DNA of 64,000 nt from Planctomycetota bacterium (GTDB lineage: Bacteria; Planctomycetota; UBA1135; UBA2386). The position numbers and the translations under genes were made by a program. Every line of letters starts with the position of its first letter. Position 1 is the first letter of the stretch. Below are positions 11,864-54,893 of this stretch, in pieces. The notes under the pieces were generated by a model. It worked only from the letters and a program-made list of their open reading frames with translations, had not been told where the DNA came from and did not search any database. Location of the stretch: the NCBI GenBank assembly GCA_965223545.1, contig OZ245006.1, positions 192,001 to 256,000 of the forward strand, read 5' to 3'.

Positions 11864-13542
11864 CGGAACAGGAACCTCGAGTGGTTGCTGCCGTGCACCT
11901 CGGTGTGACACTGCAGGCAGTTGGTGAACACCGCGCCGCTGGTCTGATCGTGGAACGACGGGAAGTCCGCGTGGCACTGCAGACACAGCTGCTGGGTGCG
12001 GTGGTGGGTCAGCATGCGCTGGTTGGTGCTGCCGTGCGGAGCGTGGCAGATCGTGCAGCCGTCGCTGCGCGAGGCCTGGTGGGCGAACACGAACGGCCCG
12101 CGGTACTCGGTGTGACAGCGCACGCAGGACTCGGTGCGCAACGCGCGGTCGCGCAGCTTGGGGCGGGCCGAGTGCGGGTTGTGGCAGTCACTGCACGCCA
12201 TGTGCCCCTCGGGCACGGGGTGGTGGTTGGGCTTGTGAAACTCGGCGGCAACGTCGGTGTGGCACTTCGTGCAGCGCTCTTCCGCCTGCCGGCGGGTCTG
12301 CCCCGCCGGCGCCGCCGGCGAATGGCACGTCAGACAGGTGACCTCGTGCCGCTGGTGCGCCCCCAGCCGGACGTGCGCCAGGTGCGGGGTGTCATCGTGG
12401 CAGCGGCCGCAGGCCTGCAGCTGGTGGGCGCCGCTGGTGTCGCGCAGCGAATCCACCAACCGCGCCACGCCGCCGGAGCGGGCGTGCGCTTCGGCATTGT
12501 CGTGGCAACCGCCGCAGCCCTGTGCCAGCGGCAGGTCCAGGCCGCCCAACGAGGCGTGGATGGTACCGTGCAGGACCTCGAACGCGGGCGCGTGGCACTG
12601 CGCGCACAAGCGGTTGGTGGCGGCGGGCGCCCGGTACTCGCCCGTCTGCTGGTCGAGCCGCTGCTGGTCGGGCGATCGGGGGGCAACTGATTGGGGATCG
12701 AACCCACCCGCCCGCTCCGGCGCCGTCGGCTCGCGGTGCACGGTGTGGCAGCTGGTGCAGGTCAGACCATCCGACAGCAGCGGCTTGTCGCCCTCGCGCC
12801 AGTGGAAGTCCACCGGATCGACCCCCGCGTGGCACTCGCGGCAGGTCACGGCGCCGTCGGCGGCGTGGTCGGGACGCGTGATCAGCCGCGCCAGCCCGCC
12901 GGTCTCGACGTGCAGCGAACCGTTGCCGTGACAGCTCTCGCAGCCCTGCGCGTCGCGCCCGGCGCGCAGACTCGCGTGGCCGCCGTGGGCAAGCAGCTCG
13001 TCGCGGCGCGGATGGCACTGCAAGCACGTCGCGGCGCCCACCGGCTCGGCACTGCGGTCGAGCAGCGCCCGCCGCTCGAACCCGAGTCCCTCGTGCGGCA
13101 CGGCACCGGGCTCCTCGTGCACGGTATGACAGTCGGTGCAGCCCTTGCCCGCCTGCGCGAACCCCTCGGGGTCGCCGCCGTGCACCGCCATCTGGTCGGC
13201 GTGGCACTGCTGGCAGACAGCTCCCTGGACCTTCGCCGGCAGCTTCTGCGGATGGGTGATCAGCCGGGGCTCGTTGTCCTCGTGGTCACCGTGCGCCTGG
13301 CCCGGACCGTGGCAAGTCTCGCAGCCGCGCAGGCCGTCGACCGCCAGCACGCCGGCGTGCACCGAGGCGGCCAGCACCTCCCATTGGTCCTCGTGACAGT
13401 CTTTGCAGACCGCCTTGCCCAAGTACTCGCCGTGGCGGGGAAACGGCGCGGTGGGGTCCTGCGGCCGCGGCGCCAGGCCGGTGGCCAGCGCCGCCGCGAT
13501 CAAGTAGAGCGAAAGCCACGTTGCCGTGTGCCGGACGCGCAT
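11860..13542 (-). CDS. MtrA/DmsE-family multiheme c-type cytochrome, extended to 18 hemes
   Basis: Signal peptide; 18 CxxCH motifs counted; C-terminus CTICHAPHGS...CLQCHTEVHGSNH is the MtrA/DmsE signature. Confidence 0.88.
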   Translation of the reverse strand: MRVRHTATWLSLYLIAAALATGLAPRPQDPTAPFPRHGEYLGKAVCKDCHEDQWEVLAASVHAGVLAVDGLRGCETCHGPGQAHGDHEDNEPRLITHPQKLPAKVQGAVCQQCHADQMAVHGGDPEGFAQAGKGCTDCHTVHEEPGAVPHEGLGFERRALLDRSAEPVGAATCLQCHPRRDELLAHGGHASLRAGRDAQGCESCHGNGSLHVETGGLARLITRPDHAADGAVTCRECHAGVDPVDFHWREGDKPLLSDGLTCTSCHTVHREPTAPERAGGFDPQSVAPRSPDQQRLDQQTGEYRAPAATNRLCAQCHAPAFEVLHGTIHASLGGLDLPLAQGCGGCHDNAEAHARSGGVARLVDSLRDTSGAHQLQACGRCHDDTPHLAHVRLGAHQRHEVTCLTCHSPAAPAGQTRRQAEERCTKCHTDVAAEFHKPNHHPVPEGHMACSDCHNPHSARPKLRDRALRTESCVRCHTEYRGPFVFAHQASRSDGCTICHAPHGSTNQRMLTHHRTQQLCLQCHADFPSFHDQTSGAVFTNCLQCHTEVHGSNHSRFLFR

Positions 13543-22114: not shown

Positions 22115-23354
22115 AACTGCAGCCCTTCCGTGGGCCTGCTAGCTGAGAGACGCTGACCGAGACGTAACCGGAGCCCTCTTCCGAGTCACTGGAAGTGACG
22201 CAGGGCCAGCTGCGCAAACGGTGCCCTTTGGTCCCCCCGCGTTGTGTCCCGGAGGTCGCCGATGTTCGTTCCCCCGCGTTGCCCCAACTCAGCTTGCCCG
22301 CACAACCGCAGCCCGCGGCCCGGCTTCTTCGTACGCCGTGGCTACTACTACCCCAAGTGCCGCGCCCAAGGCGTGCCGCGCTTCCGCTGCCGCCATTGCC
22401 GGCAAGGCTTCTCGCGGCAGACGTTCCGCATGGATTACCGCGACCACAAGCCCGACCGCAACGCCTGGATCGTCATGTTGCTCTGCTCTGGCCTGGGCCT
22501 GCGACAGACCGCACGCCTGGCCGGGCTCACGGCGCGCAACACCGAGATGAAGTTCCGCAAGATCGGTCGTCACGTCCGCCGCCTGAACAACAACTTACGG
22601 GGTGACCTGCCGGTCGGCTCGAGCTTGCAGTTCGACGAACTCGAGAGCTACGAGGGCCGCCGCAACACGCGGCCCCTGACGCTGCCTGTCCTGATCGAGC
22701 GCGGGAGCCGCTTCATCCTCGCAGCGCGGTCGGCCCCGATCCGCCCAGGTGGCCCCAAACCGGCTGCGCGCCGGCGAGCGATAGAGGCCGACGCGCGGCG
22801 GTTTGGCCGGCGGCCGTCGCGGTCGCGCGCGGCAACGCGCAATGCGCTGTGCCGGGGCGCGCGCGCTTGCACTCGGTTGACCACCGTGTTGCTCGAAACG
22901 GACGAGAAAACGACCTACTCAGGACTCGCGAGGGGCATTTTCGGCGCGCGGCTCGAGCACCGGCGAACACCGAGCACGCTGCCGCGCGAGACCTGGAACC
23001 CGCTGTTCGCGATCAACCATACCGAGGCAATGGCGCGCGACCTCAACGGTCGTCTGCGGCGCGAGTCCTGGCTGGTCAGCAAGAAGCGCTGTTTCCTCAA
23101 CCTGCAGCTGCACATCTACACCGCGTACCGCAACTTCACGCGACCGCGCTTCAACTTCGACCGAGACACGCCGGCGATGCTGGTTGGCTGGCTCCCCCAG
23201 AAGTTGCGGCTGAACCAGGTGCTATCCTGGCGCCAGGACTGGGGCACGCGCAGCGGCCATCCGCTGGATCGAAACGCAAAACCGATCGAGAACTTCCTGA
23301 AGAGCTCTGCCTGACTTTCTTGCGGCCGTGCCGGACCACGGAAGGGCTGCAGTT
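22115..23354. mobile_element. Insertion sequence, IS1/IS1595-like, with 19-bp perfect inverted repeats
   Basis: AACTGCAGCCCTTCCGTGG at 22115-22133 and its reverse complement at 23336-23354 bracket a transposase. True ends may be 22108/23403 (CTAG flanks). Confidence 0.8.
22262..23314 (+). CDS. IS1-like transposase (Zn ribbon, HTH, DDE-type core)
   Basis: CPNSAC..RFRCRHC Zn finger, GLRQTARLAG HTH, QFDE, ETDEKTTY, R..R...SKK, YRNF and TPAM motifs. Confidence 0.82.
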   Translation: MFVPPRCPNSACPHNRSPRPGFFVRRGYYYPKCRAQGVPRFRCRHCRQGFSRQTFRMDYRDHKPDRNAWIVMLLCSGLGLRQTARLAGLTARNTEMKFRKIGRHVRRLNNNLRGDLPVGSSLQFDELESYEGRRNTRPLTLPVLIERGSRFILAARSAPIRPGGPKPAARRRAIEADARRFGRRPSRSRAATRNALCRGARACTRLTTVLLETDEKTTYSGLARGIFGARLEHRRTPSTLPRETWNPLFAINHTEAMARDLNGRLRRESWLVSKKRCFLNLQLHIYTAYRNFTRPRFNFDRDTPAMLVGWLPQKLRLNQVLSWRQDWGTRSGHPLDRNAKPIENFLKSSA

Positions 23355-23570: not shown

Positions 23571-25097
23571 GTGGCGACGCGCCCCATGCCGCACACCGCA
23601 GTTCCCGCTGGGCTTCACCGGGCCTCGCGCGCCCCGACGCGTGAAGGTTTGGCCGGCACCGGCACCGCGATCAACCCGTGCCGGCCACGGACGACGACCG
23701 GCATCTTGATGGTGACCGACGTGCTGATGGTGGTGACGGCGTCGGTGGTGGCCTACCTCGCAGCAAGCCAACTGCACGAGCTGCAGGTGGAGCGCTACTT
23801 GCCGATGCTGCTGGTCGCGCTGCTGTTCCCGCCGGCGTTCGTCGGCGCCGGGCTGTATCGCGGCCCGAGCTTCGCCGAGGAGCTGCGCGCGGTGTGCTTC
23901 CGCACCTCGATGATTTGGGCCGGCCTGATGGCGCTCACTTTCATCGTGCACGACCTGCCACTGGCCGAGCAGCTGCCGTTCTCGCGCTGGGTGTTCGGGT
24001 TCGCCTGGGCGAGCTCGATCGTGCTGCTGCTGATCGCGCGGCTCACCCTGCGCATCCTGTTCGCGGACGCCAGCTGGTGGGGCTCGGGGGCGCTGGTCAT
24101 CGGCACCGAGCCGGCGGCCGAAGAGGTGATCCGCCGCCTGCAGGCGCACCCGAGCCGCGGCGTCAAGCCGGTGGCCGTACTGATCGCCGGCGGCGACGAC
24201 GACACCACGATCGAGGCCGTGCGCGGCGTTCCGGTGCTCGGCACGAGTCGAGAGCTGGCCGAGATCGGTGCCGCGTTGGGGATCGAGCGCGCCATCCTCA
24301 CCACCAAGGGAATGGAGGCGCACACCCAGTCGGTGCTCACCGACCGCGTCTCCCGCATGTTCGCGCGGCTCGCCGTGATCCCCGACCTGCACGGCTTCTC
24401 CCACCTCTGGTGCGACGCGCGCGACTACGGCGGCCTGCTGGGACTCGACGTCAAGCCGGCCCTGTTCCGGCCGTGGCCCAAGTTCTGCAAGCGCTTCTGG
24501 GACATCGCGCTGGCGACCACGGGGATGGCGCTGCTTGCGCCGGTGTTCCTCGCAATCGCGGTGGCGATCAAGCTGACTTCGCCGGGGCCGGTCTTCTATT
24601 CGCAGCGACGGCTCGGCCTGAACGGCGAGTTCTTCCGGATGTGGAAGTTCCGCTCGATGGTGATGGACGCCGACCGCCGCCTACAGGAGCACCTCGAGAC
24701 GCATCCCGAGGCGCGCACCGAGTGGGAATCCATGCAAAAGCTCGCCGACGATCCGCGCGTCACCAGCGTCGGCAAGCTGCTGCGCATCAGCAGCCTCGAT
24801 GAGCTGCCGCAGCTCTGGAACGTGCTGAACGGGACGATGAGCTTGGTCGGCCCACGGCCGGTCCCCGACGACGGTGTGGACAAGCTGTACAGCTACGGCC
24901 CGCGCTACGTCGAGTACTACACCAGCGTGCGGCCCGGCATGTCCGGCCTATGGCAGGTCGAAGGGCGCTCGGCCGTCAGCTACGACACCCGCGTCGAGCT
25001 GGACATGACCTACATCCGCACGTGGAACGTGTGGCTCGACTGGGAGATCCTGGTCAAGACCGCCCGCGCGGTGTTCAGCGGCACGGGGGCCTGCTGA
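23571..25097 (+). CDS. wbaP: Undecaprenyl-phosphate galactose phosphotransferase (WbaP-like)
   Basis: TM region, then KRFWD, KFRSM, KLADDPRVT, SLDELPQLWNV, RPGMSGLWQV and RVELD..Y; start uncertain. Confidence 0.85.
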   Translation: MATRPMPHTAVPAGLHRASRAPTREGLAGTGTAINPCRPRTTTGILMVTDVLMVVTASVVAYLAASQLHELQVERYLPMLLVALLFPPAFVGAGLYRGPSFAEELRAVCFRTSMIWAGLMALTFIVHDLPLAEQLPFSRWVFGFAWASSIVLLLIARLTLRILFADASWWGSGALVIGTEPAAEEVIRRLQAHPSRGVKPVAVLIAGGDDDTTIEAVRGVPVLGTSRELAEIGAALGIERAILTTKGMEAHTQSVLTDRVSRMFARLAVIPDLHGFSHLWCDARDYGGLLGLDVKPALFRPWPKFCKRFWDIALATTGMALLAPVFLAIAVAIKLTSPGPVFYSQRRLGLNGEFFRMWKFRSMVMDADRRLQEHLETHPEARTEWESMQKLADDPRVTSVGKLLRISSLDELPQLWNVLNGTMSLVGPRPVPDDGVDKLYSYGPRYVEYYTSVRPGMSGLWQVEGRSAVSYDTRVELDMTYIRTWNVWLDWEILVKTARAVFSGTGAC

Positions 25098-25294
25098 GCC
25101 CCGACGCTGGCCCGGGGCGCGCGCAACAGCTGCGGAATCCGGGGGTGTGACCGCCCCTCCCGAGGGCTTTAGGATGCCGGGGAATCGCGCGGCGCGGGTC
25201 TGCCCTTGTCCCCCGCTGCGCGGTCGGTGCACCCGTGGCAAAACGGGTTGCAACATCCTCGAATCTTTCAACTCTTGCGACGCAGGGAGCCGCA

Positions 25295-28200
25295 ATGAGG
25301 GATCTTCGTCTCGGGCGGACGGCGGCTTTGGCGGCCGCGCTCACGCTCCTCACCAACCACACCGCAACCGCCCAAGCAACGCGCCGCGCCGACGAAGACT
25401 TCGCCGTCGCCATGGGGCTGTTGCGGCGCGATCTGCACGAGGAGGCGGCGGCGCAGCTGCGGCGCTTGCTACAGCGCGACCCGGACTTCCCGCGCGCGGC
25501 CGAAGCGCTCTACCGCCTCGGCACGTGCTACGAGGCGATGGGCGAGCCACCCCGCGCCATCGATGCGCTCGAGCAGAGCCTCGGCGCGGCGCGGGCCGAC
25601 TTCACCCTGCGTCCCGAATGTCGCTATCGCCTCGGCAACCTGCTGCGGGCCGAGGGCCGCGGCCCCGCGGCACGCCGCCAGTACCAGGCGCTGGTCGCCG
25701 AAGTCGGGGCGGACCACTACTTGCGGCGCGCGGCGTCCTACGCCGCCGGTGAGTGCGCGCGCGACGACGGCGATGACGAGGGCGCGCTCGACGACTTCCT
25801 CGCCGCCGCCGAAGAGGGCGGTGAGGACGATGGGCGCTACGCGGTGCCCGCGCTCTACCAGGCCGGGTCCGCGCTGTTCCGTCTCGAGCGCTTCGCCGAC
25901 GCGGCCGCGACCTTCGGCCGTGCCGCCGACCGCCAACCGCGCGGCAACCTGGTCGCCGAGTGCCGCTACATGCAGGGACAGTCCGCCGCCAACGCGGGCG
26001 ATCACGCCACCGCCGAACGCGCCTACTCCGCCGCGGTCGAAGCCGGCGGCGAGTGGGCCGACGACGCGCAGCTCGGCCTGGCGCTGTGCGCGGTGCAGAC
26101 CGGCAGCCCACAAGATGCTCTACGCCGGTTCCAACAGCTGCTGAGCGCGCACTCGGACTCGCCGCTGGCGCCGCGCGCCACGGTGGAGATCGGCCGTCTC
26201 CTGCACCAAGCCGGCAACCACGAGGCTGCCCGCGACGTGCTCGGCGCGCTGCTGGACGAACTCGGCGACGACCACGCGATCCGCGCCGAGGCCCTCGAGC
26301 TGCGCGGTCTCGCCCAGCTCGACGGCGGCGCCGCCGAGCCCGCGGCGCGCTCGTTCGAGGCGGCGCTGGCCGCCGGACCCGACGAGGACGCGATTGCGCG
26401 GCTGTGGCACGCGCTGGGTGAGGCCCGCAGCGAGGCGACCCAGTGGCAGGCGGCCGCGGATGCGTACGAGCGCGCGCGGCAGCGGGCACAGGGCGCCCTG
26501 CGCGGTGACGCCTGGTACGGATCGGTGCTCGCCCTGCACAAGCTCGGCTCCGTCGACCAATCGATCGAGGCGGCCCGCGCACTGTTGCGCGAGCATCCCG
26601 ACCACCGCCTGGCGCAGCACGCGCGGTTCGCGATCGGCGAGAACCTGTTCGCGGCGCGCGACTACGCCGGGGCCGACGAGGCCTACGCCGAGGTCGACGC
26701 CGAGCACGAACTCGCCGGCAAGGCGGCTTGGAAGCGGGCGTGGTGCGCGTTCTTGGCGGAGAACGCGGCGCTGGCGGCGCAGCGGTTCGCCGCGCTGACC
26801 GGGGCCGACGACTTCGGCGAAGAAGCGCTGTCGATGACCGCGCTCGCCACCTTCAACGCCGGCGACGACGACCGCGCCCTGCAGCTGGCCGACACCTACC
26901 GCGCGCGCTATCCGGAAGGCGCGCACCTGGCGCGCACCGAGCGGGTCGCCGCCCGCGTACTGACGCGGCGCAACGAGCTGCGCGCAGCGGCGCAGCGCAT
27001 CGCCAACGCCGCCCGCGCCGAGGGCGACGGCGGGCAGGCCGCCGAGGACGAGCTGGAGCGCGCCAGCCTGCTCTACAAGCAGGGCGACTACGCCGCCGCG
27101 GCCGACGTCTACCAGCAGCTGGCGCGGGACGAGACCCTGCGCGGCCGTGCCCTGGAGGGAATGGCGTGGTGCGCATTCGAGATCGGCGACGATGCGGCGT
27201 GCCTCGAGCACATCCAGGCGGCGCTCGCTCAGCCCGATGGCCGCGGCCGCGCCGCCGAGCTACTCGAGCTGCGCATCGCCAGTCTGTCGCGCACCGAGAG
27301 CTGGGACGAGGTCGAGCAAACGGCCGCCGAGTTCCTGCGGCAGCTGCCCGACCACGCGCGCGCACCGGAGGCGGCGTTCGCCATGGGGCTGGCGCAGTCC
27401 AAGGCCGGCCGGCACGGCGACGCGATCGCCACCTTCGGCGCGTTGGCCGATCACGGCGGCTTGCAGGATCCCGCCAAGCTCTACTACGAGTGGGCGTGGG
27501 CGTGCCGCAACAACGGCGACGAGCCGGGCGCGTTGCGCGCCTTCGCGCAGGTCGCCAGCCACAGCGAGGACCCCGACACCAACGGAGAGGCTCGGCTGCA
27601 TCTCGGGCTGGCCGCGTTGGCCGCTGAAGATGCCGAGAACGCGCGCCAGCACTTCGCCGCCGTGCAGGGCCGCTACCGCGGTCAGGCGCTGTACCGCGCC
27701 GGCTTCACCTGGCTCGACGCCGACGACGCCGAGCGCGCGCAGCCGCTGTTCCAAGAGCTGCTCGACCTGGGCGCGGAGCACCCACTGCACCACGAAGCGC
27801 GCTTCTTGGTCGGCGAGTGCGCGTTCTTGCGCGGCGACCACGAGTCCGCCGCGGAACAGCTCGGCGCGCTGCTCGAGGCGGCGCCCGAGCACGACCGCGC
27901 GCAGCGCGCGCGGCTGCGCTACGGCCGCAGCCTGCTGGCGCTGTCCCGCGCCAACGACGCGATCGCCCAGCTCGAGACCATGCTGCAGCGCGGCGCTGCG
28001 GGTGTCGACGAGATGGAGGGCTACCTCTTCCTGGGGCGGGCACGCGCGGCGGCCGGCCAGCACGAGCGCGCCGAGCAAGACCTCTTGCGGGTCACCGAGC
28101 TGTCGACCGGCGAGCTCGCCGCCGAGGCGCAGTACCGCATCGGCGAGGTGCGCCAGGCGCAGCGCGATCTCAACGGCGCCATCGACGCGTTCGTCAAGCT

Positions 28201-28384
28201 GTCCTTCGTCTATGCCCACGAGGAGTGGGTGCGGCGCGGGCTGCTGCAGGCCGGGCTGTGCTATGCCGAGCTGTCGCAGCCGAGCAAGGCGGCGAAGTTC
28301 TTGGCCGAGCTCGTCGAGCGGTTCCCGGACAGCGAAGAGGGCCGCCGCGCCCGCTCGGAGCTCGAGGACCTGAAGGGGCAGTGA
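25295..28384 (+). CDS. Large secreted TPR protein (CpoB/BamD-like repeats)
   Basis: Signal peptide after GGAG RBS; many TPR helix pairs (ALYRLG, A.F..L...P.S); CpoB-like end LVERFPDS. Confidence 0.85.
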   Translation: MRDLRLGRTAALAAALTLLTNHTATAQATRRADEDFAVAMGLLRRDLHEEAAAQLRRLLQRDPDFPRAAEALYRLGTCYEAMGEPPRAIDALEQSLGAARADFTLRPECRYRLGNLLRAEGRGPAARRQYQALVAEVGADHYLRRAASYAAGECARDDGDDEGALDDFLAAAEEGGEDDGRYAVPALYQAGSALFRLERFADAAATFGRAADRQPRGNLVAECRYMQGQSAANAGDHATAERAYSAAVEAGGEWADDAQLGLALCAVQTGSPQDALRRFQQLLSAHSDSPLAPRATVEIGRLLHQAGNHEAARDVLGALLDELGDDHAIRAEALELRGLAQLDGGAAEPAARSFEAALAAGPDEDAIARLWHALGEARSEATQWQAAADAYERARQRAQGALRGDAWYGSVLALHKLGSVDQSIEAARALLREHPDHRLAQHARFAIGENLFAARDYAGADEAYAEVDAEHELAGKAAWKRAWCAFLAENAALAAQRFAALTGADDFGEEALSMTALATFNAGDDDRALQLADTYRARYPEGAHLARTERVAARVLTRRNELRAAAQRIANAARAEGDGGQAAEDELERASLLYKQGDYAAAADVYQQLARDETLRGRALEGMAWCAFEIGDDAACLEHIQAALAQPDGRGRAAELLELRIASLSRTESWDEVEQTAAEFLRQLPDHARAPEAAFAMGLAQSKAGRHGDAIATFGALADHGGLQDPAKLYYEWAWACRNNGDEPGALRAFAQVASHSEDPDTNGEARLHLGLAALAAEDAENARQHFAAVQGRYRGQALYRAGFTWLDADDAERAQPLFQELLDLGAEHPLHHEARFLVGECAFLRGDHESAAEQLGALLEAAPEHDRAQRARLRYGRSLLALSRANDAIAQLETMLQRGAAGVDEMEGYLFLGRARAAAGQHERAEQDLLRVTELSTGELAAEAQYRIGEVRQAQRDLNGAIDAFVKLSFVYAHEEWVRRGLLQAGLCYAELSQPSKAAKFLAELVERFPDSEEGRRARSELEDLKGQ

Positions 28385-28416
28385 CCTGAACAGGCAGTGA
28401 ACAGCGGACCGCCATC

Positions 28417-29112
28417 ATGATCGAACACCACCCTCTGACCATAACGCTCACCGCCCCACAGGGCACCGAGGTCGTCACCACCCAGACGCTCTGGGAGTAC
28501 CTGCAGTCCGGCGGACCGGTAATGGTCCCCCTCGTACTGTGCTCGGTGGTGGCGATGGCGTTCGCCATGGAGCGCTACCTGCGCCTGCGGCGCCGCGTCG
28601 TCTGCCCGACGGGAGTCGCCGATGCAGTCCAGCTGGTGCACGACGGCCGCGTCGACGAGGCGATCCACGCCGCCGAGGCGGCGTCCTCGCCGGGCGGCCG
28701 GATCCTCCTCGCCGGGCTGCGGCGCAGCGGGTTCTCGATCGAGGACATCGAACGCGCCATCGAGGACCAAGGCCAGAAGGAGATGCAGCGACTGCAGGCG
28801 CCGGTGCGCGGGCTGTCGTTGATCGCCAACGTGTCGCCGCTCCTCGGCCTGCTGGGCACCGTCATCGGCATCGCCGAAGCGTTCCACCGCGTCGTCGACT
28901 CGGGCCTCGGCAAGCCCGAACACCTGGCCGTGGGCATCGAGCAGGCGTTGACCACGACGGTGGTCGGGCTGGTGATCGCCATCCCCGCCATGCTGGTCGC
29001 AGCACACCTGCACGCCAAGGTGCGCCGCCTGATGCTGCACACCGACGAGACCATCGCACCCGTGGTCGAGCCTCTCGCGCGCCTGCGCGACGAGGAGAGC
29101 CATGCGGCTTGA
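28417..29112 (+). CDS. MotA/TolQ/ExbB proton channel protein
   Basis: GGPVMVPL, SPLLGLLGTVIG and GI.QALTTT..GL.IAIPA motifs. Confidence 0.92.
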   Translation: MIEHHPLTITLTAPQGTEVVTTQTLWEYLQSGGPVMVPLVLCSVVAMAFAMERYLRLRRRVVCPTGVADAVQLVHDGRVDEAIHAAEAASSPGGRILLAGLRRSGFSIEDIERAIEDQGQKEMQRLQAPVRGLSLIANVSPLLGLLGTVIGIAEAFHRVVDSGLGKPEHLAVGIEQALTTTVVGLVIAIPAMLVAAHLHAKVRRLMLHTDETIAPVVEPLARLRDEESHAA

Positions 29113-29521
29113 CCCCGGGCCCGCCGACGAGGGCACCGTCAACCTGACGCCGTTGATCGACGTCGTCTTCCTGTTGCTCGTGTTCTTCTTGGTCGCGACC
29201 ACGTTCGCCAAGGACGAGGTCGAGCTCGATCTCACCCTGCCGGACGCGACCACGGGCGCGCAGGGTGAAGGCGGACATCTGCTGGTGATCAACGTCAAGC
29301 GGGACGGCACGCTGGTCGTCGACGGCCGCACCATGACCCTCGAGGGGTTGCGGCAGCGGCTGCGGGCGGCGGCCGCGGCGAAGAAGGACCAGGAGGTCCT
29401 GATCCGCGGCGACACCCAGGTCCAATTCGGTGTGGTCGCGCAGGCGTTCGACGCGTGCCTGGCCGCGCAGCTGCGCCGCGTCGCCGTCGCCGCTCAACCC
29501 GAGACCGGGGGTGGTCCGTGA
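29102..29521 (+). CDS. ExbD/TolR family protein
   Basis: NLTPLIDVVFLLLVFF with the conserved TM Asp, LP and IRGD motifs; overlaps the exbB-like gene. Confidence 0.92.
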   Translation: MRLDPGPADEGTVNLTPLIDVVFLLLVFFLVATTFAKDEVELDLTLPDATTGAQGEGGHLLVINVKRDGTLVVDGRTMTLEGLRQRLRAAAAAKKDQEVLIRGDTQVQFGVVAQAFDACLAAQLRRVAVAAQPETGGGP

Positions 29522-32500
29522 ATCGGCGCGTGCGGCGGGTCCTGTTCTGGAGCGTGTTCGTGGTCGCGGTCACCGCCGCGGTGTCGCTCTGGATGCTGCG
29601 CTCCGGCCGGCCGCTGTACTACACCGATGGCGAGCAGCAGTACTCGGCGCGCGAGCTCAGCGACGCCTCGATGCTGATCTGGGACCCTCCGCTGCCCGAA
29701 TACGAGCTGCCCGGCCCGGTGGTGGGGCGGGTCGCCGCGATGCCCGACGGGCGCCTGCTCTACGGCCGTGGCAGCAGCGCGGAGCGCACCGATTTGGTGC
29801 TGTTCGACCCCGCGCGGCCGAACGCGGTGCCGGAACGCGCGGTCGGCCTCAACAGCCGCGGCCACGACCTCGCGCCCGTGCTGCTCGCCGACGGCTGGCT
29901 GTACTTCAGCTCGGACCGGCGCGGCGGAGTGGGGGGCTTCGATCTCTACCGCGCCCGCCTGCGCGGCGGCGCGTTCGGCGCGGTCGAGGCGCTGCCCGAC
30001 TGGATCAACACCGGGCTGGACGAGGCCGACCCCGCGCCCGCGCCCGACGGCACCACGCTGGTCTTCACCCGGCGTGACCCCGGCCTGCGCGACGGCGCCA
30101 ACAGCACGCTGATGCTGGCCTCGCTGTCGGACGCGACGGCGGCGGTGCCGCTGTACGAGCCCGATCCGGAACGCGTCGACCAAGACCGCGATCCGGCGTG
30201 GTCGCCGGACGGGGTCTGCCTGTGGTTCGTGCGACAGACCGATGGTGGCCCGCTGCTGCTGCGCACTTGGCGGTTGGAAGGCACCTTCGCGCCGCCGCAC
30301 GCGCCCGCGGCGCTGCGCGCCGGCGGTCCGTTTCGCGGACCAGCACCGGACGAGTCCGGCTTCGGCCTCCGCCTGCTCAAGCCGGCCGCCGACGACTCCG
30401 CCCTGACCTATTTCGCCACCGCGCGCGAGCTCTACCCGTGGTGGGCCGGGCAAGCATGGCTCGAGCTGTTGCTGCTGATCGTCCTGCTGATCGCCCTGCT
30501 GCTGCTGTTGCTGCTGTGGCTCGGCGAGCGCTGGCGTCAGCTCGACGTGATCACCTGGTGTCTGCTGCTGTCGCTGTTCTTGCACTTCCTGGCGATGCTG
30601 TGGCTCGCCGACGTGCAGATCGTGCGGCGCTTCTTCGCCCCGGACCGCGACGACGGGGGTCTGCAGGTCGAGCTATTGGCCGACGCCGGCGCGGCGGCCG
30701 GCGGCGGACTCGAGATCCGGCAAGCGCAGCGGCAGCTGCACCGCGAGGCGCGGTTTGCCGAGCAGGCCGAGGCGCTGTCGGCAGCGGCGCCCGCCGCGGT
30801 GGTCGCCGCCACCGAGCCCCAGCCGACCGCGACGCCGGCGACGACGGCCAACCAAGAGCTGACGGCGCCGGCGGTGGAGACCGCTGCCAGCGCACTCGCC
30901 GACGCTGCCAGCGAGGAACCGCGCCACGATGGTCGCGACGAGAGCGCCGCGCTGGCCGCGCGCGCGCAGCGCGCCGAGCAGAGCGCCCACGAGGTCCAGG
31001 TCGCCCGCGCGCAGGCCGCCGCGCAGCCGCTGGCCGCGGCGCAGCCATCGGCGACGCCGGAGGCCGGCCCGTCGGCGGCGCGTGCACCGGACGGCGCCGC
31101 GCCGAGCGCGCTGCTCGAGACTCCGACCGAGACCGCGGTCGCCCAAAGCCAGGTGAGCGATACGCCCACTTCCGCTCCGCTGCGCACGGGAACCGACGGC
31201 CCGGCCGCCGCGGCGGCCGCCGTCGATCCCGGCGCCCTCGCGGCGTCCAGCGACGCGGTGCAACCGGCGCCCCGCACCCTGCCCGGCCCGCGGGCGCTGG
31301 CGGCGCAACACCGGGACGCACAGGGCCTGGCGCGGGCGACCGACACCGGCGAGGCGCCGCCCAGCACGCACGTCGCCAACTTGCCGTCGGCACCCACGGC
31401 GGCCGCCGCGCCGATGGAGGACGCGCCCCGCGAGGCGGCGCGGCACGCCGGCAGCGACGCCGCCACACCTCTCGTCGCAGGCTCCAGCCCGGCTCCGGCG
31501 CAACAATCCGCCCTGCCGCGGGCCGAGCGCGCCGCCGCGCAAACCGGCCTCCAGAGCGCCGGGCGGACCGGCGCCGCCGCACCGCAGACCGCGCTGGCCG
31601 GCGGTGCGCCGCGGGCGCGTCCAAAGCCGGAGGGGCCGGCACCGAGCGACGCCGTGCCGGTGGCGGCAGCCCCCGCGCAGCCGACCGCACTCGCCGATGC
31701 CCCGCAGGCGCAGACCGCGTCTCGCAGCGCCGACGACCGCGGCCGCGGCGCGGCACTGGCGGCCGCGCCGACCACGGTGGGGCCGCGGGCTTCGGCGTTG
31801 CCGCGGGTGAACCGGCCGGCCACGGCCGATCCCGGCGGCGCCGCGCCGGCGGCGACGGCCACGCCCCGGCCCACGGACGACCTGGCACGCGCCGGTGCGC
31901 CGCGCGCAGCGGCGGGTCCCCAGAGCACTCCACACGCGCCGGACGCCCGCCGCACGGCCCTGGTCGCGGCCGCTCCGGAACTCGCCGATGAGCTGCCAGG
32001 AGCCTCCACCCGGCCGGCAGCCGAGGACTCCACGAGCCCCGCGTTGCGCGCGGCCGTCACCGCCCTCGAGCCGCGCGGGCAGCCGCTGTCGCGACCGCCG
32101 GCGCCCCGCTCCACCGCCGGCGCGGCAGCGGCCGCGCAGCCGGCGACGCCGCCTTCGTCGCTGTTGGCGGCCGGCAGCGGTCGCCGCGGCGCCGAGGCAC
32201 CAGCCGCGGCGCACCACGCGACGCCGATGGCGACCGCGACCGGAGCGGCACCCGCAACCGAGCTGCGCGATGCCCCGCGGCCAGAGACCGCCAGCACCGC
32301 CCAGGGAGACCGCGAACAGCGCGACGCATCACGCGCCGACGCGCCCGCGTCCACCGGTCCCGTCGCCCTCGAAGAGCTCGGGCCGCGCCGGGGTGCCGCC
32401 TCGCTGGCGGCGCCGATCCGCGACGGGGCCGGAGCGGCGGCGCCCGACGCCGCCGACATCGCAGCCCCACCAGCCAGCTCCCTGGCGCGCGCCGACCGCA

Positions 32501-33951
32501 CGCGGCGGCCGGGAGCGCGCGCGCCCGCGCGCCGAGACGCAGCTCCGTCCGGGGCGCCGGCCGCGGCCGTGCCGTCTCTGCGCGATGGCCTCGACCGCCT
32601 CGCCTCGGGGCTGGGCGAGCAAACCCCACGCGAGGGCCGCGCCGACGCACGCGGCCTCAACCCGGTCGCCCTGCAGGTCGAGCGCGGTCGAGAGAGCCGC
32701 CGTGAGCCAGGACGCGCCATGCGGCGCAACGTGACGGCGGCGCGCGGCCGCGCCGGCGGGGTTCGGCCGCCGGGCTCGCTGCTGGCGGCCGCGCCGCGGC
32801 AGACGCACACCACGGCACCGCGCACCGTCGCGGCCGAGCTGCCCTCGGTCTTCGACAACCGGTTCGGGGTGAAGAAGACCGAAGCACTCGAACGCTTCGG
32901 CGGCACTACCGAGACCGAGCGCGCCGTGCAGCGCGGGCTGGCCTACCTGGCGCGAATCCAGCGCGCCGACGGTGGCTGGGGCCGGCGCGTTCCCGATGAG
33001 AAGTACGGCGACGTCACCATCGGCAAGACCGGCCTGTGCCTGCTCGCGTTCTTGGGCGCCGGCCACTTGCCGAGTGGCGACACCCGATACGCGGCCGTCG
33101 CCGCCCGCGCCGTCGAGTACTTGGTGCGCCGGCAGGACGCCCGCACCGGCGCCATCGGCCGCACTTCGTCCTACGGCCACGGCATCGCCAGCTACGCGCT
33201 CGCCGAATGCCACGCGCTCGACCCCGACCTCGGCCTCGAGCCCGTGGTGGTCGAAGCGATGCGCTGGATCCTCGCCAACCAGAATCACGGGCGCGATCCG
33301 CGCAGCCGCGGCGGGTGGGGCTACTTCTCCACCGTGCTCAGCCCAGAAGACAGCTTTGCCCGCACGTCGGTCAGCGTGTGGATGGTGATGGCACTCGAGT
33401 CGGCCAAGATCTCCGGCATTCGGGTCCCCGAGGACGCCATGCGGAGCTCCGACGCCTACCTGCGCAACCAGTGGAGCTCCAGGCGCGGCTACTTCTTCTA
33501 CAACCAGAATCCTCGCCGGCTGAGCACTGACTGGCCAACCTTGCCCGCGTCGACCCCAGCGGCCGCCTTCGCGCTGCTGCTGCGCGGTGCCTCACCGACC
33601 GAGCGCACCCTGCGCGGGGCGTTGCAGTACATCGTGCAGCGCCGACCACGGGTCTACGAGCGCCCGACCAACGACGACTTCGTCCACCGCGCCGCCGGCA
33701 ACGTCTACTTCTGGTACTACGGCAGCCTCGCCTGCCTGCTCGCGGGCGGCGACGCGTGGGAGCGGTGGAACGCCGCCCTCAAGGTGATCCTGCCCGAGGC
33801 GCAGCGCGACGATGGCTCCTGGCAGCCGATCGACCCGTACGCGGAAATGGCGCAGGACACGGATCGGGACGCGGCCTACACGACGGCGATGTGCGTGTTG
33901 AGTCTGGAGGTGTACTACCGCTACTTCACGCCGCTGTTGCAGCGCGGGTAA
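29518..33951 (+). CDS. Multidomain membrane protein: PD40/TolB-like propeller + TM hairpin with SxxxH + Ala/Pro linker + prenyltransferase/squalene-cyclase-like repeat barrel
   Basis: GTG overlaps the exbD TGA. PD40 motifs (FSSDRRGGVGGFDLY, DPAWSPDG); SLFLH helix; QW-like repeats (RGLAYLARIQRADGGW, WILANQ..GGWGY, AQRDDGSW). Confidence 0.8.
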   Translation: MNRRVRRVLFWSVFVVAVTAAVSLWMLRSGRPLYYTDGEQQYSARELSDASMLIWDPPLPEYELPGPVVGRVAAMPDGRLLYGRGSSAERTDLVLFDPARPNAVPERAVGLNSRGHDLAPVLLADGWLYFSSDRRGGVGGFDLYRARLRGGAFGAVEALPDWINTGLDEADPAPAPDGTTLVFTRRDPGLRDGANSTLMLASLSDATAAVPLYEPDPERVDQDRDPAWSPDGVCLWFVRQTDGGPLLLRTWRLEGTFAPPHAPAALRAGGPFRGPAPDESGFGLRLLKPAADDSALTYFATARELYPWWAGQAWLELLLLIVLLIALLLLLLLWLGERWRQLDVITWCLLLSLFLHFLAMLWLADVQIVRRFFAPDRDDGGLQVELLADAGAAAGGGLEIRQAQRQLHREARFAEQAEALSAAAPAAVVAATEPQPTATPATTANQELTAPAVETAASALADAASEEPRHDGRDESAALAARAQRAEQSAHEVQVARAQAAAQPLAAAQPSATPEAGPSAARAPDGAAPSALLETPTETAVAQSQVSDTPTSAPLRTGTDGPAAAAAAVDPGALAASSDAVQPAPRTLPGPRALAAQHRDAQGLARATDTGEAPPSTHVANLPSAPTAAAAPMEDAPREAARHAGSDAATPLVAGSSPAPAQQSALPRAERAAAQTGLQSAGRTGAAAPQTALAGGAPRARPKPEGPAPSDAVPVAAAPAQPTALADAPQAQTASRSADDRGRGAALAAAPTTVGPRASALPRVNRPATADPGGAAPAATATPRPTDDLARAGAPRAAAGPQSTPHAPDARRTALVAAAPELADELPGASTRPAAEDSTSPALRAAVTALEPRGQPLSRPPAPRSTAGAAAAAQPATPPSSLLAAGSGRRGAEAPAAAHHATPMATATGAAPATELRDAPRPETASTAQGDREQRDASRADAPASTGPVALEELGPRRGAASLAAPIRDGAGAAAPDAADIAAPPASSLARADRTRRPGARAPARRDAAPSGAPAAAVPSLRDGLDRLASGLGEQTPREGRADARGLNPVALQVERGRESRREPGRAMRRNVTAARGRAGGVRPPGSLLAAAPRQTHTTAPRTVAAELPSVFDNRFGVKKTEALERFGGTTETERAVQRGLAYLARIQRADGGWGRRVPDEKYGDVTIGKTGLCLLAFLGAGHLPSGDTRYAAVAARAVEYLVRRQDARTGAIGRTSSYGHGIASYALAECHALDPDLGLEPVVVEAMRWILANQNHGRDPRSRGGWGYFSTVLSPEDSFARTSVSVWMVMALESAKISGIRVPEDAMRSSDAYLRNQWSSRRGYFFYNQNPRRLSTDWPTLPASTPAAAFALLLRGASPTERTLRGALQYIVQRRPRVYERPTNDDFVHRAAGNVYFWYYGSLACLLAGGDAWERWNAALKVILPEAQRDDGSWQPIDPYAEMAQDTDRDAAYTTAMCVLSLEVYYRYFTPLLQRG

Positions 33952-33992: not shown

Positions 33993-36569
33993 TCAGCGAA
34001 CCGTGTCGAAGACGACGTTGGTGAGCCGGCCTCCGCCCGTTTGGTCCACCATCAGCGCCTGCCCAAAGAACGTGCGGCCGACGATTCCCGCAGTCGCGGG
34101 GATGACCAGCAATGTGGTCGTCTGTCCAGAAACCTGCGGAATCGGCAGTGGAGGCAGGGGGCTCGCGATGGTGGGATCCAAGCCCAGGATGCCCAGACCG
34201 CCGAGTGGAATCCGAGCGGCTCGGGCGGAAAGAAAGAAGAACGCCGTGAACGGCTGCCCGACAGGGTTGTGACGGGCGTAGAAATCGACCAGGTAGCCGG
34301 CGCCCGCATAGGCACGGTCGCGTGGGACGACCTGCCGCAGTAGGTTCAGCAACAAGGGATTCCAAGCGCCGTCGGCGGCGAAGACCAGATCCGCATCCCC
34401 GTCGCCATCGAGATCCCCAGCCGCCAATCCCTCCGTTAGGACGGTGGGTACCGGCAGTCGGAAGGCCTCGTCGGTGAAGTTCCCATTACCGTCGTTGATG
34501 TACACGCGGCTGCCTCCCCGGTTGCCGACAACAAGGTCCAGGCTTCCATTGTTGTCGATGTCAACCAAGAGCATCGCCCTGGTTGTCTTTTGGTTGGCAA
34601 GCATCTGGGCGCCCGTAGCGTCGCTGTAGCGACCCTGCCCATCATTCAAGTACAACCGGTCATGTAGCGCCCCACCGAGAGTGGCGTCGAGGTCGCCGTC
34701 ACCATCGACGTCACCCAGCGCGACGCACTGGGTACCGGCCGGATTGGCCGGCAGATGCGTCGCGGTGACATCCACGAAGGAACCCCCTTGATTGAGCAAG
34801 AGGCGGTCGAGACCTCGGTTGCCAATCAGCAAATCGGGCGCGCCGTCGCCGTCGACGTCCCCGAAAGCCAAGGCGTACGTATGGTCAGCAAAGTCGGGGA
34901 GCCGCCCGATGCTGCTGTCGACGAACACGCCGGCAGCGTTCAGATACAGCGCGTTGCGCTCCCGACGGTCGTTGCCGACGACGAGGTCGAGGTCGCCGTC
35001 GCCGTCTACGTCCGCCACTGCCAGCGCCTGGGTCGAATCCGCGATCGCCGGCAGCCGCGCTGCGGTCACATCGACAAACTGTCCCGCGCCAACGTTCAAT
35101 AACAGACGGTTCTGTTGTTGCTCGTTGCCCACCAGCAAGTCTGGGTCACCGTCCTGATCGATGTCGGCGAGCACGACAGCCTGACTGTTGTCGGCACTAT
35201 TGCTCAGCGCAAAGAACGGATCATCGCGAAACCGCCCCCTCCCGTCGTTGAGATACAAGCGATCATGCCGGCCATTATTGGCGATGACTACATCCAACGA
35301 CCCATCGCCGTCCACGTCCCCCGCTGCCACCGCTCTGGATGCATCGACATCCCCAGGCAGGCTGCGGCAGGCCGTCCCCTCTCGAAAAGTGCCATCTCCC
35401 TGCCCCAGCCAAATCACAGATCCCGGGTAGTCGACCTCGATGAGGTCCAGGTTGCCGTCACCGTTCAGATCTCCTGAAGAAAAGAGATCCCCACGACCCG
35501 AACACATGAGCGGCCTTTGCGCACTACTGAAACCGCCGGTTCCGTCGCTCTCGAAATAGCTGGCGCAACCTGACGACCCCACTTTCGTGTAGTAGCTGTC
35601 ATAGATGTTGCCAAAGATCAGATCTGCGTCGCCGTCCTTGTCGAAATCCTCCATGAGGACGGTAAAGCAGAACTCACCTTCGCGGACGAGCGCGCTCGAC
35701 GCATCTGCGAACACACCGCGACCATCGTTCAAATACAAGTAGTTCGACCGCGAAAAGAACGGAAAGAGGTATGCGTCCGGATCAACGATTGCCAAGTCGA
35801 GATCGCCGTCGCGATCGACATCTCCCAACTGGACAGCGTAGGCTGTCAGAAAGAGTGACGGCATTTGCGGGGTAGCGTCCGTGAAGGCAGCAGCACCGTT
35901 GTTGAGGAACAGGCGGACGCCGCCAGAGAATCCGACCACGACATCCACATCGGAGTCTCCGTCAACGTCCCCTGCGGTCATGGAGATGGCCGAGCCCCAC
36001 GCATTCTGAGATGCCTGCGTAAACACTCCGTGACCGCTGTTGATGTAGACCCTGCCAGTACCTGCCCGACTCACCTGGACAATGTCCTGGTCACCGTCTC
36101 CATCCAAGTCACGGAAGACGAGTCCCGTAGTGTCTTCGCGCAACCGCGGGATTCGCGACGCGGTTTCGTCCCGGAAGGTGCCGCCACCTTGGTTGACGAG
36201 GAGAAGATTCTCGGCTCGGGTGCCGACAGCGATGTCGAGATCCGCATCGCCATCGATGTCCGCCATGGCAATGACCATCACGGTCGATGCTGCCTGGGCT
36301 TGAATCAGGGGAGCGTGGGAGAACACTCCGGTGCCGTCGTTCAGCGACAAGCCAAGTGTCTGCAACCATCCGGTGACGATGTCCGTATCGCCATCGCCGT
36401 CGACGTCACCGAACGCCGCTTCGAAGAAGAACGCCGGCGGGTTGTTTGGCAGCTCGAGCTCGGCGAACTGGGGCTGCGCCCACCCGGTGGACGCCAGATA
36501 CGCGAGCAACACGGGGGCAAGGACGGAAGCGGCACAACCGTTGTTCTCCGGAGTCGGTCGACTGCTCAT
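33993..36569 (-). CDS. Secreted FG-GAP/VCBS repeat protein with shared C-terminal domain
   Basis: Signal ending WAQ; many GDVDGDGDxD repeats forming two probable propellers. Confidence 0.88.
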   Translation of the reverse strand: MSSRPTPENNGCAASVLAPVLLAYLASTGWAQPQFAELELPNNPPAFFFEAAFGDVDGDGDTDIVTGWLQTLGLSLNDGTGVFSHAPLIQAQAASTVMVIAMADIDGDADLDIAVGTRAENLLLVNQGGGTFRDETASRIPRLREDTTGLVFRDLDGDGDQDIVQVSRAGTGRVYINSGHGVFTQASQNAWGSAISMTAGDVDGDSDVDVVVGFSGGVRLFLNNGAAAFTDATPQMPSLFLTAYAVQLGDVDRDGDLDLAIVDPDAYLFPFFSRSNYLYLNDGRGVFADASSALVREGEFCFTVLMEDFDKDGDADLIFGNIYDSYYTKVGSSGCASYFESDGTGGFSSAQRPLMCSGRGDLFSSGDLNGDGNLDLIEVDYPGSVIWLGQGDGTFREGTACRSLPGDVDASRAVAAGDVDGDGSLDVVIANNGRHDRLYLNDGRGRFRDDPFFALSNSADNSQAVVLADIDQDGDPDLLVGNEQQQNRLLLNVGAGQFVDVTAARLPAIADSTQALAVADVDGDGDLDLVVGNDRRERNALYLNAAGVFVDSSIGRLPDFADHTYALAFGDVDGDGAPDLLIGNRGLDRLLLNQGGSFVDVTATHLPANPAGTQCVALGDVDGDGDLDATLGGALHDRLYLNDGQGRYSDATGAQMLANQKTTRAMLLVDIDNNGSLDLVVGNRGGSRVYINDGNGNFTDEAFRLPVPTVLTEGLAAGDLDGDGDADLVFAADGAWNPLLLNLLRQVVPRDRAYAGAGYLVDFYARHNPVGQPFTAFFFLSARAARIPLGGLGILGLDPTIASPLPPLPIPQVSGQTTTLLVIPATAGIVGRTFFGQALMVDQTGGGRLTNVVFDTVR

Positions 36570-53943: not shown

Positions 53944-54080
53944 CGAAGCCTCCTCTGAGAAGAGAACGATGCGGCAGCCCCGAAAATTGCCTCGGCTGCG
54001 GGACCGCCCCGGGCACACGCACCTTCTGATAATGTTTGTTATGTCGAACTCAGGGCCCGAGAAGCGATGGGGGCCGCGAC

Positions 54081-54893
54081 TCAGACGGTCTCCACGCGTA
54101 CCGTTTCCCCCAGCCAGCCCCGAGGCCCACGGCGGCCGATGACCAGGCCTTTGTCGCCGGCAGCCAGGCACGCCACCCGATCGCCGGACGGTGTCCACAA
54201 CGCGCTGCCGCCGGCGGCGGGCAAGCCGCCCGAGGTGCCGGTGTAGTTCGCGAGCAGGACTGCCATCTGGTGCGTTCGGGCGCGTTCCGCGAGGCGCTGG
54301 TGCTCGGCCGCGCACTCCGCGGTGACCACGAACGCGCTCACCAAGTAGGCGCCGGCGTCGCGCGCGGCGGCACGCGCAGCGTGCGCGGGATCACCAACAT
54401 CCGCGCAGATCGCCAGCCCGGCGGACAGCGCGCCACAGCGGACATCGACGTCGGCGCTCCCCGGTGCGAACACCGTGCCCTCGGGCGGCGGGATCGGGCC
54501 GCTGGGATTGACCTCCGGGGTGAACGCGCCGAGGCGCTGCTTGGCGTACAGCGCGAGCCTCGGCTGGCCTTCGCCGGCGCGGCCATCGAAGACCAGGGCG
54601 GCCAGCCGCAACGCGCCCGTCGCGTCGCGCACCGGCGCACCGGCCACGAGGATGAGCGAACGCGCTGCCGCGAGCTCGGCCAGCGGCCCGAGCCGCGGAT
54701 CGCCAACGTCCATCGCCAGTTCCGCCGCGCGGTCCAACTCGTAGCCGGTGAGCGACAGCTCGGGAAACAAGAGCAGACGCGCACCCTCGCGCGCGGCGCG
54801 CTGCGCGTAAGCCAGGTGCAGCGCGACGTTGGCGCCGATGTCACCGGCGACGGGCGAGAGCTGCGCGGCCGCGAGCACCGTCTCGGCAGGCAT
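54081..54893 (-). CDS. Carbon-nitrogen hydrolase (nitrilase superfamily)
   Basis: FPELSLTGY, YAK and AICAD give the E-K-C triad. Confidence 0.88.
   Translation of the reverse strand: MPAETVLAAAQLSPVAGDIGANVALHLAYAQRAAREGARLLLFPELSLTGYELDRAAELAMDVGDPRLGPLAELAAARSLILVAGAPVRDATGALRLAALVFDGRAGEGQPRLALYAKQRLGAFTPEVNPSGPIPPPEGTVFAPGSADVDVRCGALSAGLAICADVGDPAHAARAAARDAGAYLVSAFVVTAECAAEHQRLAERARTHQMAVLLANYTGTSGGLPAAGGSALWTPSGDRVACLAAGDKGLVIGRRGPRGWLGETVRVETV

Follow-up and report, generated by a model that had tools for sequence, protein, structure and literature searches.

We analyzed a four-gene operon in a 64,000-nucleotide window of a Planctomycetota genome (UBA2386 lineage; GenBank assembly GCA_965223545.1, contig OZ245006.1, positions 192,001 to 256,000; window coordinates count from the first letter of this stretch). 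The operon, at 25295-33951 on the + strand, encodes a tetratricopeptide repeat (TPR) protein, an ExbB/TolQ-type and an ExbD/TolR-type motor subunit, and a fourth protein, hereafter P4, which is very probably a TonB/TolA-type force transducer for the 5:2 proton motor of the ExbB/ExbD type encoded just upstream. A machine driven by the proton-motive force and reaching across the periplasm had been proposed from the sequence alone, and this reading is supported by a Ser-x3-His (SxxxH) motif in a transmembrane (TM) helix of P4, by synteny, by the topology, by a motor-box-like strand and by the residues kept in the motor subunits, from which we infer that P4 binds the motor. A version of these envelope-powering machines with a toroid as its head is apparently undescribed: no description of a toroid-headed transducer was found in open full texts, subscription papers and bioRxiv supplements lying outside the search. 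All four open reading frames (ORFs) were confirmed, as were the tight spacing and the two overlaps reported earlier; exbB and exbD share 11 nt (29102-29112), exbD and the P4 gene share 4 nt (29518-29521), and 32 nt separate the TPR gene from exbB (Table 1). The TPR gene has an extra in-frame GTG at 25235, and the first in-frame GTG of P4 is at 29455, yet its homologues begin at the equivalent of 29518. In Pfam and NCBIfam, P4 matched only PD40 (E 6e-15) and, weakly, SQHop_cyclase_C (E 4e-7). None of the four proteins matched TonB_C, TolA, TonB-dependent receptor or OmpA/Pal families in these databases, in agreement with the earlier observation that no TonB_C or TolA_C domain, receptor or Pal is encoded among the four genes.

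The evidence for coupling to the motor centers on the third TM segment of P4. A homologue search returned 115 proteins, of which the best 96, including the query, were aligned. His356 was present in 96/96 and Ser352 in 91/96 (Ala in 5/96), with Leu or Phe at His+7 in 83/96; the motif also lay within a hydrophobic segment in 11 of the other 19 homologues. Among 33 distant orthologues from 17 families, the TM3 His was kept in all 33, accompanied by Ser in 24 and Ala in 9. Conservation of SxxxH had been set beforehand as a test on which the proposal could fail, and it held in both samples. Downstream of the His, a strict motor-box (D-box) pattern was found at His+25 to His+29 in 69/96 sequences, compared with 7/869 background linker windows; for orientation, the D-box of Escherichia coli TonB spans residues 45-51 and its His is His20 (PMC12215075). 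Most of the remaining 27/96 show a similar strand by eye, a pattern-level observation in a region modeled with low confidence. We also ran a strict filter for S-x3-H inside a hydrophobic segment on frames of at least 150 aa among the 53,442 stop-to-stop frames of the genome. Only three ORFs passed, all of them toroid-bearing; the filter is not exhaustive, because it missed the genome's own TonB.

Hydropathy placed three TM segments in P4 (8-26, 317-335 and 344-362), and the model agreed, connecting the TM2 and TM3 helices through a four-residue turn; the previously described layout of TM1, propeller, TM2, short loop and TM3 with the SLFLH motif therefore stands. Both the N-terminus and the turn between TM2 and TM3 carry basic residues, about two Lys/Arg each on average. 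Since an N-in orientation followed by three passes leaves the propeller and everything past TM3 on the periplasmic side, we infer that propeller and toroid are both in the periplasm, as had been claimed; a cytoplasmic barrel, the third outcome set beforehand as counting against the proposal, is not what this topology suggests. Among the motor subunits, ExbB scored 72.5 bits as tolQ and 50.1 as exbB, and overall the two subunits were better matched as tolQ/tolR than as exbB/exbD. Residues S43, T148, T181 and P190 of ExbB were invariant in 39/39 aligned ExbB sequences, matching the Ser/Pro network and the Thr ring described in PMC12215075, and the membrane Asp20 was invariant in 39/39 aligned ExbD sequences. 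The residue set of a 5:2 motor (membrane Asp, Thr ring, TM1 Ser and TM3 Pro) is kept. The TPR protein has a signal-peptide-like N-terminus, with a lipobox in 0/29 orthologue N-termini examined, and its C-terminal repeats are most like the TPRs of CpoB/YbgF (TIGR02795, best stretch 921-1022); it is presumed to be an exported, periplasmic scaffold.

Synteny with exbBD, the second test set beforehand, proved near-strict. The order TPR-exbB-exbD-P4 was observed in 38 of the 58 close loci, which had been found with the toroid, and another 17 of the 58 were cut by contig ends. We then took 40 more distant loci and, before any counting, removed seven whose PD40 proteins were unrelated (among them kinases and a protease-like protein). 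The full four-gene order was present in 28 of the remaining 33; in four, exbD or exbB-exbD is seen before the sequence reaches or nears a contig end, and the fifth lacks upstream DNA altogether, so that most misses are contig ends. These loci are related and not independent; L134 and L058 may even be one contig. A distant short form (L064) has an unrelated gene upstream. In the Verrucomicrobiota locus L065, TPR-TPR-exbB-exbD-exbD precedes four toroid genes, of which three encode SxxxH. Searches for shorter homologues mostly returned fragments of the P4 family. Atlas matches were confined to Planctomycetota toroid clusters with automatic names, and those for the TM3 region stayed below threshold.

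The heads of the orthologues vary while TM3, the motor box and the operon remain unchanged. The toroid was present in 30/33 distant orthologues, cut off in two and replaced in one. A PDZ domain is added in L079, L081 and P0096, and CarboxypepD_reg follows the toroid in P0098 and stands in its place in L072 and P0115. The L072 protein (L072:7321-10104), a 927-aa orthologue in the same operon, has CarboxypepD_reg and an unassigned domain and no toroid, and the 1795-aa orthologue L071:5305-10689 has a TonB_C-like end after its toroid (Pfam E 6e-5, just under the cut-off; TonB in 10/10 PDB hits). In L076:8590-13389, L077:5228-11071 and L116-L118, a second toroid is inserted within a propeller, that of P4 or that encoded by a separate TM-propeller-TM gene immediately 5' of P4. 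Exchangeable heads on a constant TM3, box and operon are the pattern expected of a transducer chassis with swappable outputs.

As modeled by AlphaFold2 (AF2), the head of P4 adopts an alpha/alpha toroid fold with QW-type repeats and falls in the type II terpene cyclase/prenyltransferase superfamily (predicted local distance difference test, pLDDT, 95.1; predicted template modeling score 0.94). This model and its structural matches to cyclases bear out the terpene-cyclase/prenyltransferase-fold barrel with QW-like repeats proposed by the sequence-only reading. In Foldseek and VIA-align the closest structures were the monodomain type II terpene cyclases MstE and 8PAJ (VIA-align Z 26.6, root-mean-square deviation 3.0, 296 aligned), followed at Z 23-24 by AprG, AGE-type epimerases and GH76. 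Residues Y1219, H1221, E1230, Y1269 and T1346 are invariant, indicating that a functional pocket is kept, and near-invariant Lys, Arg and Asp also lie in it. Type II cyclases need a DxDD acid, or DxD in the case of MstE (PMC12414744). Neither motif was conserved in the 118 aligned toroids, where the best DxD pair reached 37/118 and the best adjacent DD pair 59/118. Colinearity of the aligned ranges would put MstE D109 near Y1219/H1221; alignment of the toroid sequence to the cyclase active site returned QW-repeat segments only, or nothing. The beta subunit of protein prenyltransferases has an Asp/Cys/His zinc site. In the toroids no Cys column exceeded 98/118, and the query has no Cys at several of them, as read from sequence columns and not from a residue-level structural alignment. 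Conservation was 57% for the toroid, 54% for ExbD, 48% for ExbB and 44% for the P4 N-terminus, a ranking that is biased because the loci were found with the toroid.

The N-terminal model of P4 (mean pLDDT 86.5) has five propeller blades. Its best Foldseek match was TolB (E 7e-13), VIA-align gave Z 17.8-18.6 for glycoside hydrolase (GH) propellers of families GH159, GH62 and GH43 and Z 16.7 for TolB, and hidden Markov model (HMM) scores put PorE-type proteins above TolB. The TolB N-terminal domain was not seen in this model. As modeled, the propeller is related to TolB in its repeat type and is not a TolB. The earlier label of a TolB-like propeller thus holds for the PD40 repeats and fails for TolB identity, given the five blades and the missing N-terminal domain. 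Similarly, TonB/TolA-type coupling is retained from the earlier idea of fused TolB and TolA parts, but the wording of a TolB-TolA fusion overstates the case because the propeller is five-bladed, pinned between TM1 and TM2, and closer to PorE in its HMM scores.

The linker of P4 was equally distinctive. Measured from His+35 to the toroid, it ranged from 247 to 801 aa across the 96 homologues (724 in the query), while domain II measures 40-245 in TonB and 110-335 in TolA (PMC12204202). Linker lengths cluster with a period of 92 (Rayleigh R 0.42, reached by 0/1000 smoothed nulls), and the spacing of [LM]-x-D motifs peaks at 90-109 (87 observed versus about 5 expected) and 180-199 (57 versus about 5). 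For individual proteins, periodicity at about 92 aa exceeded z 2 in 63/96, the query beating 200/200 shuffles, and a unit profile trained on half of the linkers scored above 10 bits 15 times in the 48 linkers kept out of training but never in three shuffles. A lag of 80-110 outscored the control lag of 45-75 in 74/96 only, so local composition adds to the periodicity scores, and the pooled statistics are inflated by the relatedness of the sequences. BLAST self-comparison and Tandem Repeats Finder detected no long repeat in the linker, its units being too diverged. The linker is therefore Ala/Pro-rich, as first described, but is not plain sequence. Growth in fixed steps of about 92 aa was not found described for TonB/TolA in the available text of PMC12204202 and PMC12215075. 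A first repeat profile without composition correction was discarded, since shuffled linkers behaved alike (360-375 versus 379 hits above 20 bits). The frame of P4 is broken inside the GC-rich linker in L056, L057 and L084, possibly through assembly errors.

Several observations weigh against a force transducer of this type. The Trp of ExbB TM1 that contacts the His of TonB/TolA is not kept: the query has M47 at the position equivalent to Trp38, and the five commonest residues there among the 39 sequences are Val (24), Leu (9), Ile (2), Thr (2) and Met (1). The last Ser of the SHLS motif is absent from TM3 of P4; the Leu-Ser of SHLS is described as less conserved in Ton (PMC12215075). The toroid is the most conserved part of the system, which also fits an enzyme, and no outer-membrane partner is conserved beside the operon. 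Locus L048 has exbD and P4 parts with no exbB or TPR match in 3.5 kb upstream and is a real exception to the gene order. Moreover, the P4 type is patchy. When its N-terminal 406 aa were searched in 301 phylum genomes, 66 matched, some via unrelated PD40 proteins, so that at most 66/301 genomes carry it, and three families had none (0/16, 0/16 and 0/11); this distribution fits an essential envelope role poorly. For short proteins that share the SxxxH helix and toroid, exbB or exbD was found within the 1.5-kb flanks of 0/30 best loci. A complex prediction of three ExbB, two ExbD and residues 306-394 of P4 scored 0.00; the fold of the partner was uncertain and the job unlike the calibration, and we counted it neither way.

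Comparison with described systems places P4 beside, and not within, the TonB/TolA group. It shares with TonB and TolA the Ser-x3-His motif in a TM helix, a D-box-like strand 25-29 residues past the His, a Pro-rich spacer and the motor residues. However, it has no TonB_C or TolA_C (TonB_C being appended only in L071), its docking helix is the internal TM3, its linker is mostly longer, the ExbB TM1 Trp is replaced by aliphatic residues, and its locus has no receptor, free TolB or Pal. P4 would thus work like TonB/TolA and yet is no member, because the defining C-terminal domain is missing. Closer relatives are the SHLS proteins with vWA heads, encoded behind TPR-tolQ-tolR-tolR in bacteria of the Planctomycetes-Verrucomicrobia-Chlamydiae (PVC) group (Williams-Jones et al. 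2025, PMC12204202, section 8). Both have an SHLS-type TM helix, a motor box, a disordered linker, a globular head other than TonB and a gene position after TPR and tolQ/tolR-like genes, and L065 even has the exbD pair of that class. In contrast to those proteins, P4 has a modeled toroid and no vWA Pfam match, a linker of 247-801 aa in units of about 92 aa instead of about 100 aa in all, an additional TM1-propeller-TM2 part in front, one exbD and not a pair, and a TPR protein of about 1000 aa. The toroid itself shares the 12-helix fold and QW-type repeats with type II cyclases (MstE, PDB 6SBB; 8PAJ/8PAK; the beta domain of squalene-hopene cyclase), from which it differs in being only 16-21% identical, lacking the DxDD/DxD acid, and being periplasmic and tethered to a motor arm. 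A PD40 propeller is common to TolB and to PorE, a TPR-PD40-carboxypeptidase-like-OmpA lipoprotein, and TPR and CarboxypepD_reg also occur in the P4 operon family; the P4 propeller, unlike theirs, is five-bladed and anchored in the inner membrane by two helices, has no OmpA/Pal domain and is not part of a lipoprotein. The best reading makes the P4 system a sister to the vWA-headed class that has in addition a membrane-pinned propeller, a quantised giant linker and an enzyme-derived head. Leaving aside the L071 add-on, the TonB_C effector is indeed replaced by a cyclase-fold domain, as first suggested, but head swapping as such is already published for vWA (PMC12204202). The main text and supplement of that paper contain no mention of prenyl or toroid, nor its supplement of squalene, its spreadsheets being outside the search.

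Other loci of the genome also bear on the role of P4. Besides the P4 operon, its motor loci are a classical Ton locus (L004:5587-14330; receptor, DUF3450, two ExbB, ExbD, TonB_C and TPR), a MotA/MotB stator pair (L002:9342-10840) and a secretin-flanked ExbB-ExbD-ExbD locus (L001:8863-19998; G000:C1 about 7.079-7.090 Mb). The last reads secretin-TPR (966 aa)-TPR (384 aa)-ExbB-ExbD-ExbD-secretin on one strand and includes no gene for a transducer, with ParA-like and MreB/actin-like genes a short way outside it. Two tandem short proteins, 84% identical and with no motor nearby (L003:9178-12539; G000:C1 6.604-6.608 Mb), consist of a single SxxxH helix, an acidic Pro-rich linker and a toroid, and are candidate partners in trans of the secretin-flanked motor. 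One of them matched 132/151 phylum genomes at E 1e-20, in some cases via the toroid alone, and S-x3-H was present in all 30 best-match short-form ORFs. A further toroid, 71% identical to the short form, has a signal-like N-terminus and no SxxxH (L005:8310-9785). Four TonB-dependent receptors and two TonB_C proteins are encoded outside the P4 locus and none within it, though P4 might serve a receptor in trans, and two unlinked OmpA-domain ORFs are found elsewhere. In this 91%-complete genome we detected no TolA (PF06519), and no TolB (TIGR02800) or squalene-hopene cyclase over the cut-off; the cyclase result led us to set aside hopanoid transport. Neither pal nor a free two-domain tolB was present in the P4 locus or its conserved neighborhood.

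By analogy with TonB/TolA, TM3 of P4 would dock onto TM1 of ExbB and the motor-box strand would pair with the periplasmic dimer of ExbD. Ion flow would then turn ExbD and reel in the linker, pulling the toroid and whatever ligand it grips. With a cyclase-type pocket and no acid, the toroid would most likely be a non-catalytic binding head; the propeller, pinned by TM1 and TM2, could be a platform for docking or hand-over, and the TPR protein a scaffold, while the length of the linker, in steps of about 92 aa, may set the reach across a wide periplasm. As to its role, we tentatively favor Tol-like envelope upkeep, in which the arm may pull on or let go of a ligand, lipid or protein, of the outer envelope; the phylum is reported to be without Pal. 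This role is ranked above Ton-like import, an enzyme, motility and true Tol-Pal. In its favor are the tolQ/tolR-like scores, the CpoB-like end of the TPR protein and the fact that a TonB and its receptor are already provided by a classical Ton locus apart from this operon.

Among the alternatives, Ton-like import by the same transducer is possible, if somewhat doubtful. Here the toroid would engage an outer-membrane channel (e.g., a secretin) or a polymer and haul macromolecules into the periplasm. TonB_C is fused in one orthologue, some orthologues bear CarboxypepD_reg, a domain tied to contact with TonB receptors (PMC12204202), and the uptake of dextran and green fluorescent protein by planctomycetes is sensitive to the protonophore CCCP (carbonyl cyanide m-chlorophenylhydrazone), its machine being described as not known (PMC5394234). 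A second motor without a transducer sits between two secretins, with two SxxxH-toroid genes lacking a motor elsewhere, and enzymes that bind glycans often have a toroid or a five-bladed propeller fold. However, a shared fold is no proof of function, no channel, receptor or carbohydrate-active enzyme gene is conserved beside the P4 operon, and the TonB-dependent receptors of the genome have ordinary TonB proteins. It is improbable that P4 is instead a tethered periplasmic enzyme (a monodomain cyclase, lyase or isomerase) that the motor positions or activates, or with which it is merely co-transcribed. Its nearest structures are monodomain type II cyclases and its pocket holds invariant Tyr, His, Glu and Thr with near-invariant Lys, Arg and Asp; yet the 118 toroids have no conserved cyclase acid, nor, as far as their sequence columns show, the Cys/His zinc set of prenyltransferases. 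In addition, the head is missing or supplemented in some orthologues, the genome has no squalene-hopene cyclase over the cut-off, and the TM3 His and motor box would be left unexplained. Very unlikely is a machine for surface motility or adhesion resembling Agl-Glt, with the toroid as an adhesin-engaging head. The same was suggested for the vWA transducers (PMC12204202, section 8), and a long linker and TPR scaffold would fit, but P4 comes with a single ExbD instead of an AglQ/AglS-like pair, and its neighborhood contains no conserved Glt-like gene of outer-membrane or cytoskeletal type. Least likely is a true rearranged Tol-Pal system, in which P4 would fuse TolB to TolA and act on a Pal homologue from another locus: the TolB match of the propeller in Foldseek, the CpoB-like TPRs, the tolQ/tolR-like scores and the two OmpA-domain ORFs would suit it, but the propeller has five blades and no TolB N-terminal domain, neither P4 nor the genome has a TolA C-terminal domain, the supplement of PMC12204202 cites no pal in Planctomycetes, and a propeller fixed at the inner membrane could not shuttle to Pal.

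The coordinates of the operon and of the parts of P4 are given in Table 1. Directly 5' of the operon and on the same strand, a Bac_transf bacterial sugar transferase is encoded at 23571-25097 (+), and an 858-aa FG-GAP repeat protein at 33993-36569 (-) is convergent with P4; neither is a conserved neighbor. The segment of the FG-GAP gene has a GC content of 0.62 versus about 0.72. We sought a conserved fifth gene and rejected the idea: the flanking genes that recur do so in a single close clade only, at up to 36 loci, and the operon in this window does not have them as neighbors. Further upstream, a 356-aa ORF with CxxC pairs (22244-23314, +) had no Pfam match at E 0.05 and is transposase-like by inspection. 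Two large proteins at 9560-11986 (-) and 51622-54315 (-) gave weak matches to multiheme cytochromes c (c7-like; MtrC-like, E 7e-5; DUF6850).

Table 1. Genes of the operon and predicted parts of P4, in window coordinates (residue numbers of P4 in brackets).
Feature	Position	Strand	Details or basis
TPR protein	25295..28384	+	1029 aa from ATG; Pfam TPR_16 E 2e-45
ExbB/TolQ-type motor subunit	28417..29112	+	231 aa, 3 TM; PF01618 (MotA_ExbB) E 1e-28
ExbD/TolR-type motor subunit	29102..29521	+	139 aa; PF02472 (ExbD) E 7e-30
P4, putative force transducer, whole gene	29518..33951	+	1477 aa; GTG start overlapping exbD stop
P4 TM1 (8-27), anchor/signal anchor, preceded by basic residues	29539..29598	+	hydropathy; helix 3-29 in model
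P4 five-bladed PD40 beta-propeller (about 53-304), between TM1 and TM2	29674..30429	+	AF2
P4 TM2 helix (310-339), ending in conserved R-W-x-x-L-D/E cytoplasmic turn	30445..30534	+	hydropathy, alignment, model
P4 TM3 (344-363), S352-x3-H356 = SLFLH at 30571-30585, L363 at His+7	30547..30606	+	alignment
P4 motor-box (D-box)-like strand LQVELL (382-387), His+26	30661..30678	+	pattern
P4 Ala/Pro-rich linker, about 720 aa, seven degenerate units of 86-105 aa (about 30871-32805)	30679..32844	+	periodicity analyses
P4 C-terminal alpha/alpha toroid (1110-1477)	32845..33948	+	AF2, Foldseek, VIA-align

Planctomycetes are described as having a wide periplasm, press-stud links between their membranes and protonophore-sensitive uptake of macromolecules (PMC5394234). 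A broader hypothesis, speculative and on balance unlikely, is that SxxxH-toroid proteins form a phylum-wide third class of periplasmic force transducers and are the chief route by which energy crosses the planctomycete envelope. In this view the short forms would work with orphan motors in trans, the secretin-flanked ExbB-ExbD-ExbD locus being one example, and P4 would be a winch whose units of about 92 aa serve as a length-quantised tether or ratchet track, hauling toroid-bound ligand across the enlarged periplasm to the (sometimes toroid-bearing) propeller platform at the inner membrane. If true, this class would offer a molecular candidate for how planctomycetes take up macromolecules in a protonophore-sensitive manner or connect their inner and outer membranes. 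The conserved operon of motor and arm offers concrete genes and residues that can be tested, namely His356, the motor box, Asp20 of ExbD and the toroid pocket. It would extend the known outputs of ExbBD/TolQR from TonB_C, TolA_C and vWA to an enzyme-derived toroid, and it suggests that many planctomycete proteins annotated as 'terpene cyclase' or 'prenyltransferase repeat' may be motor arms and not lipid-biosynthetic enzymes.

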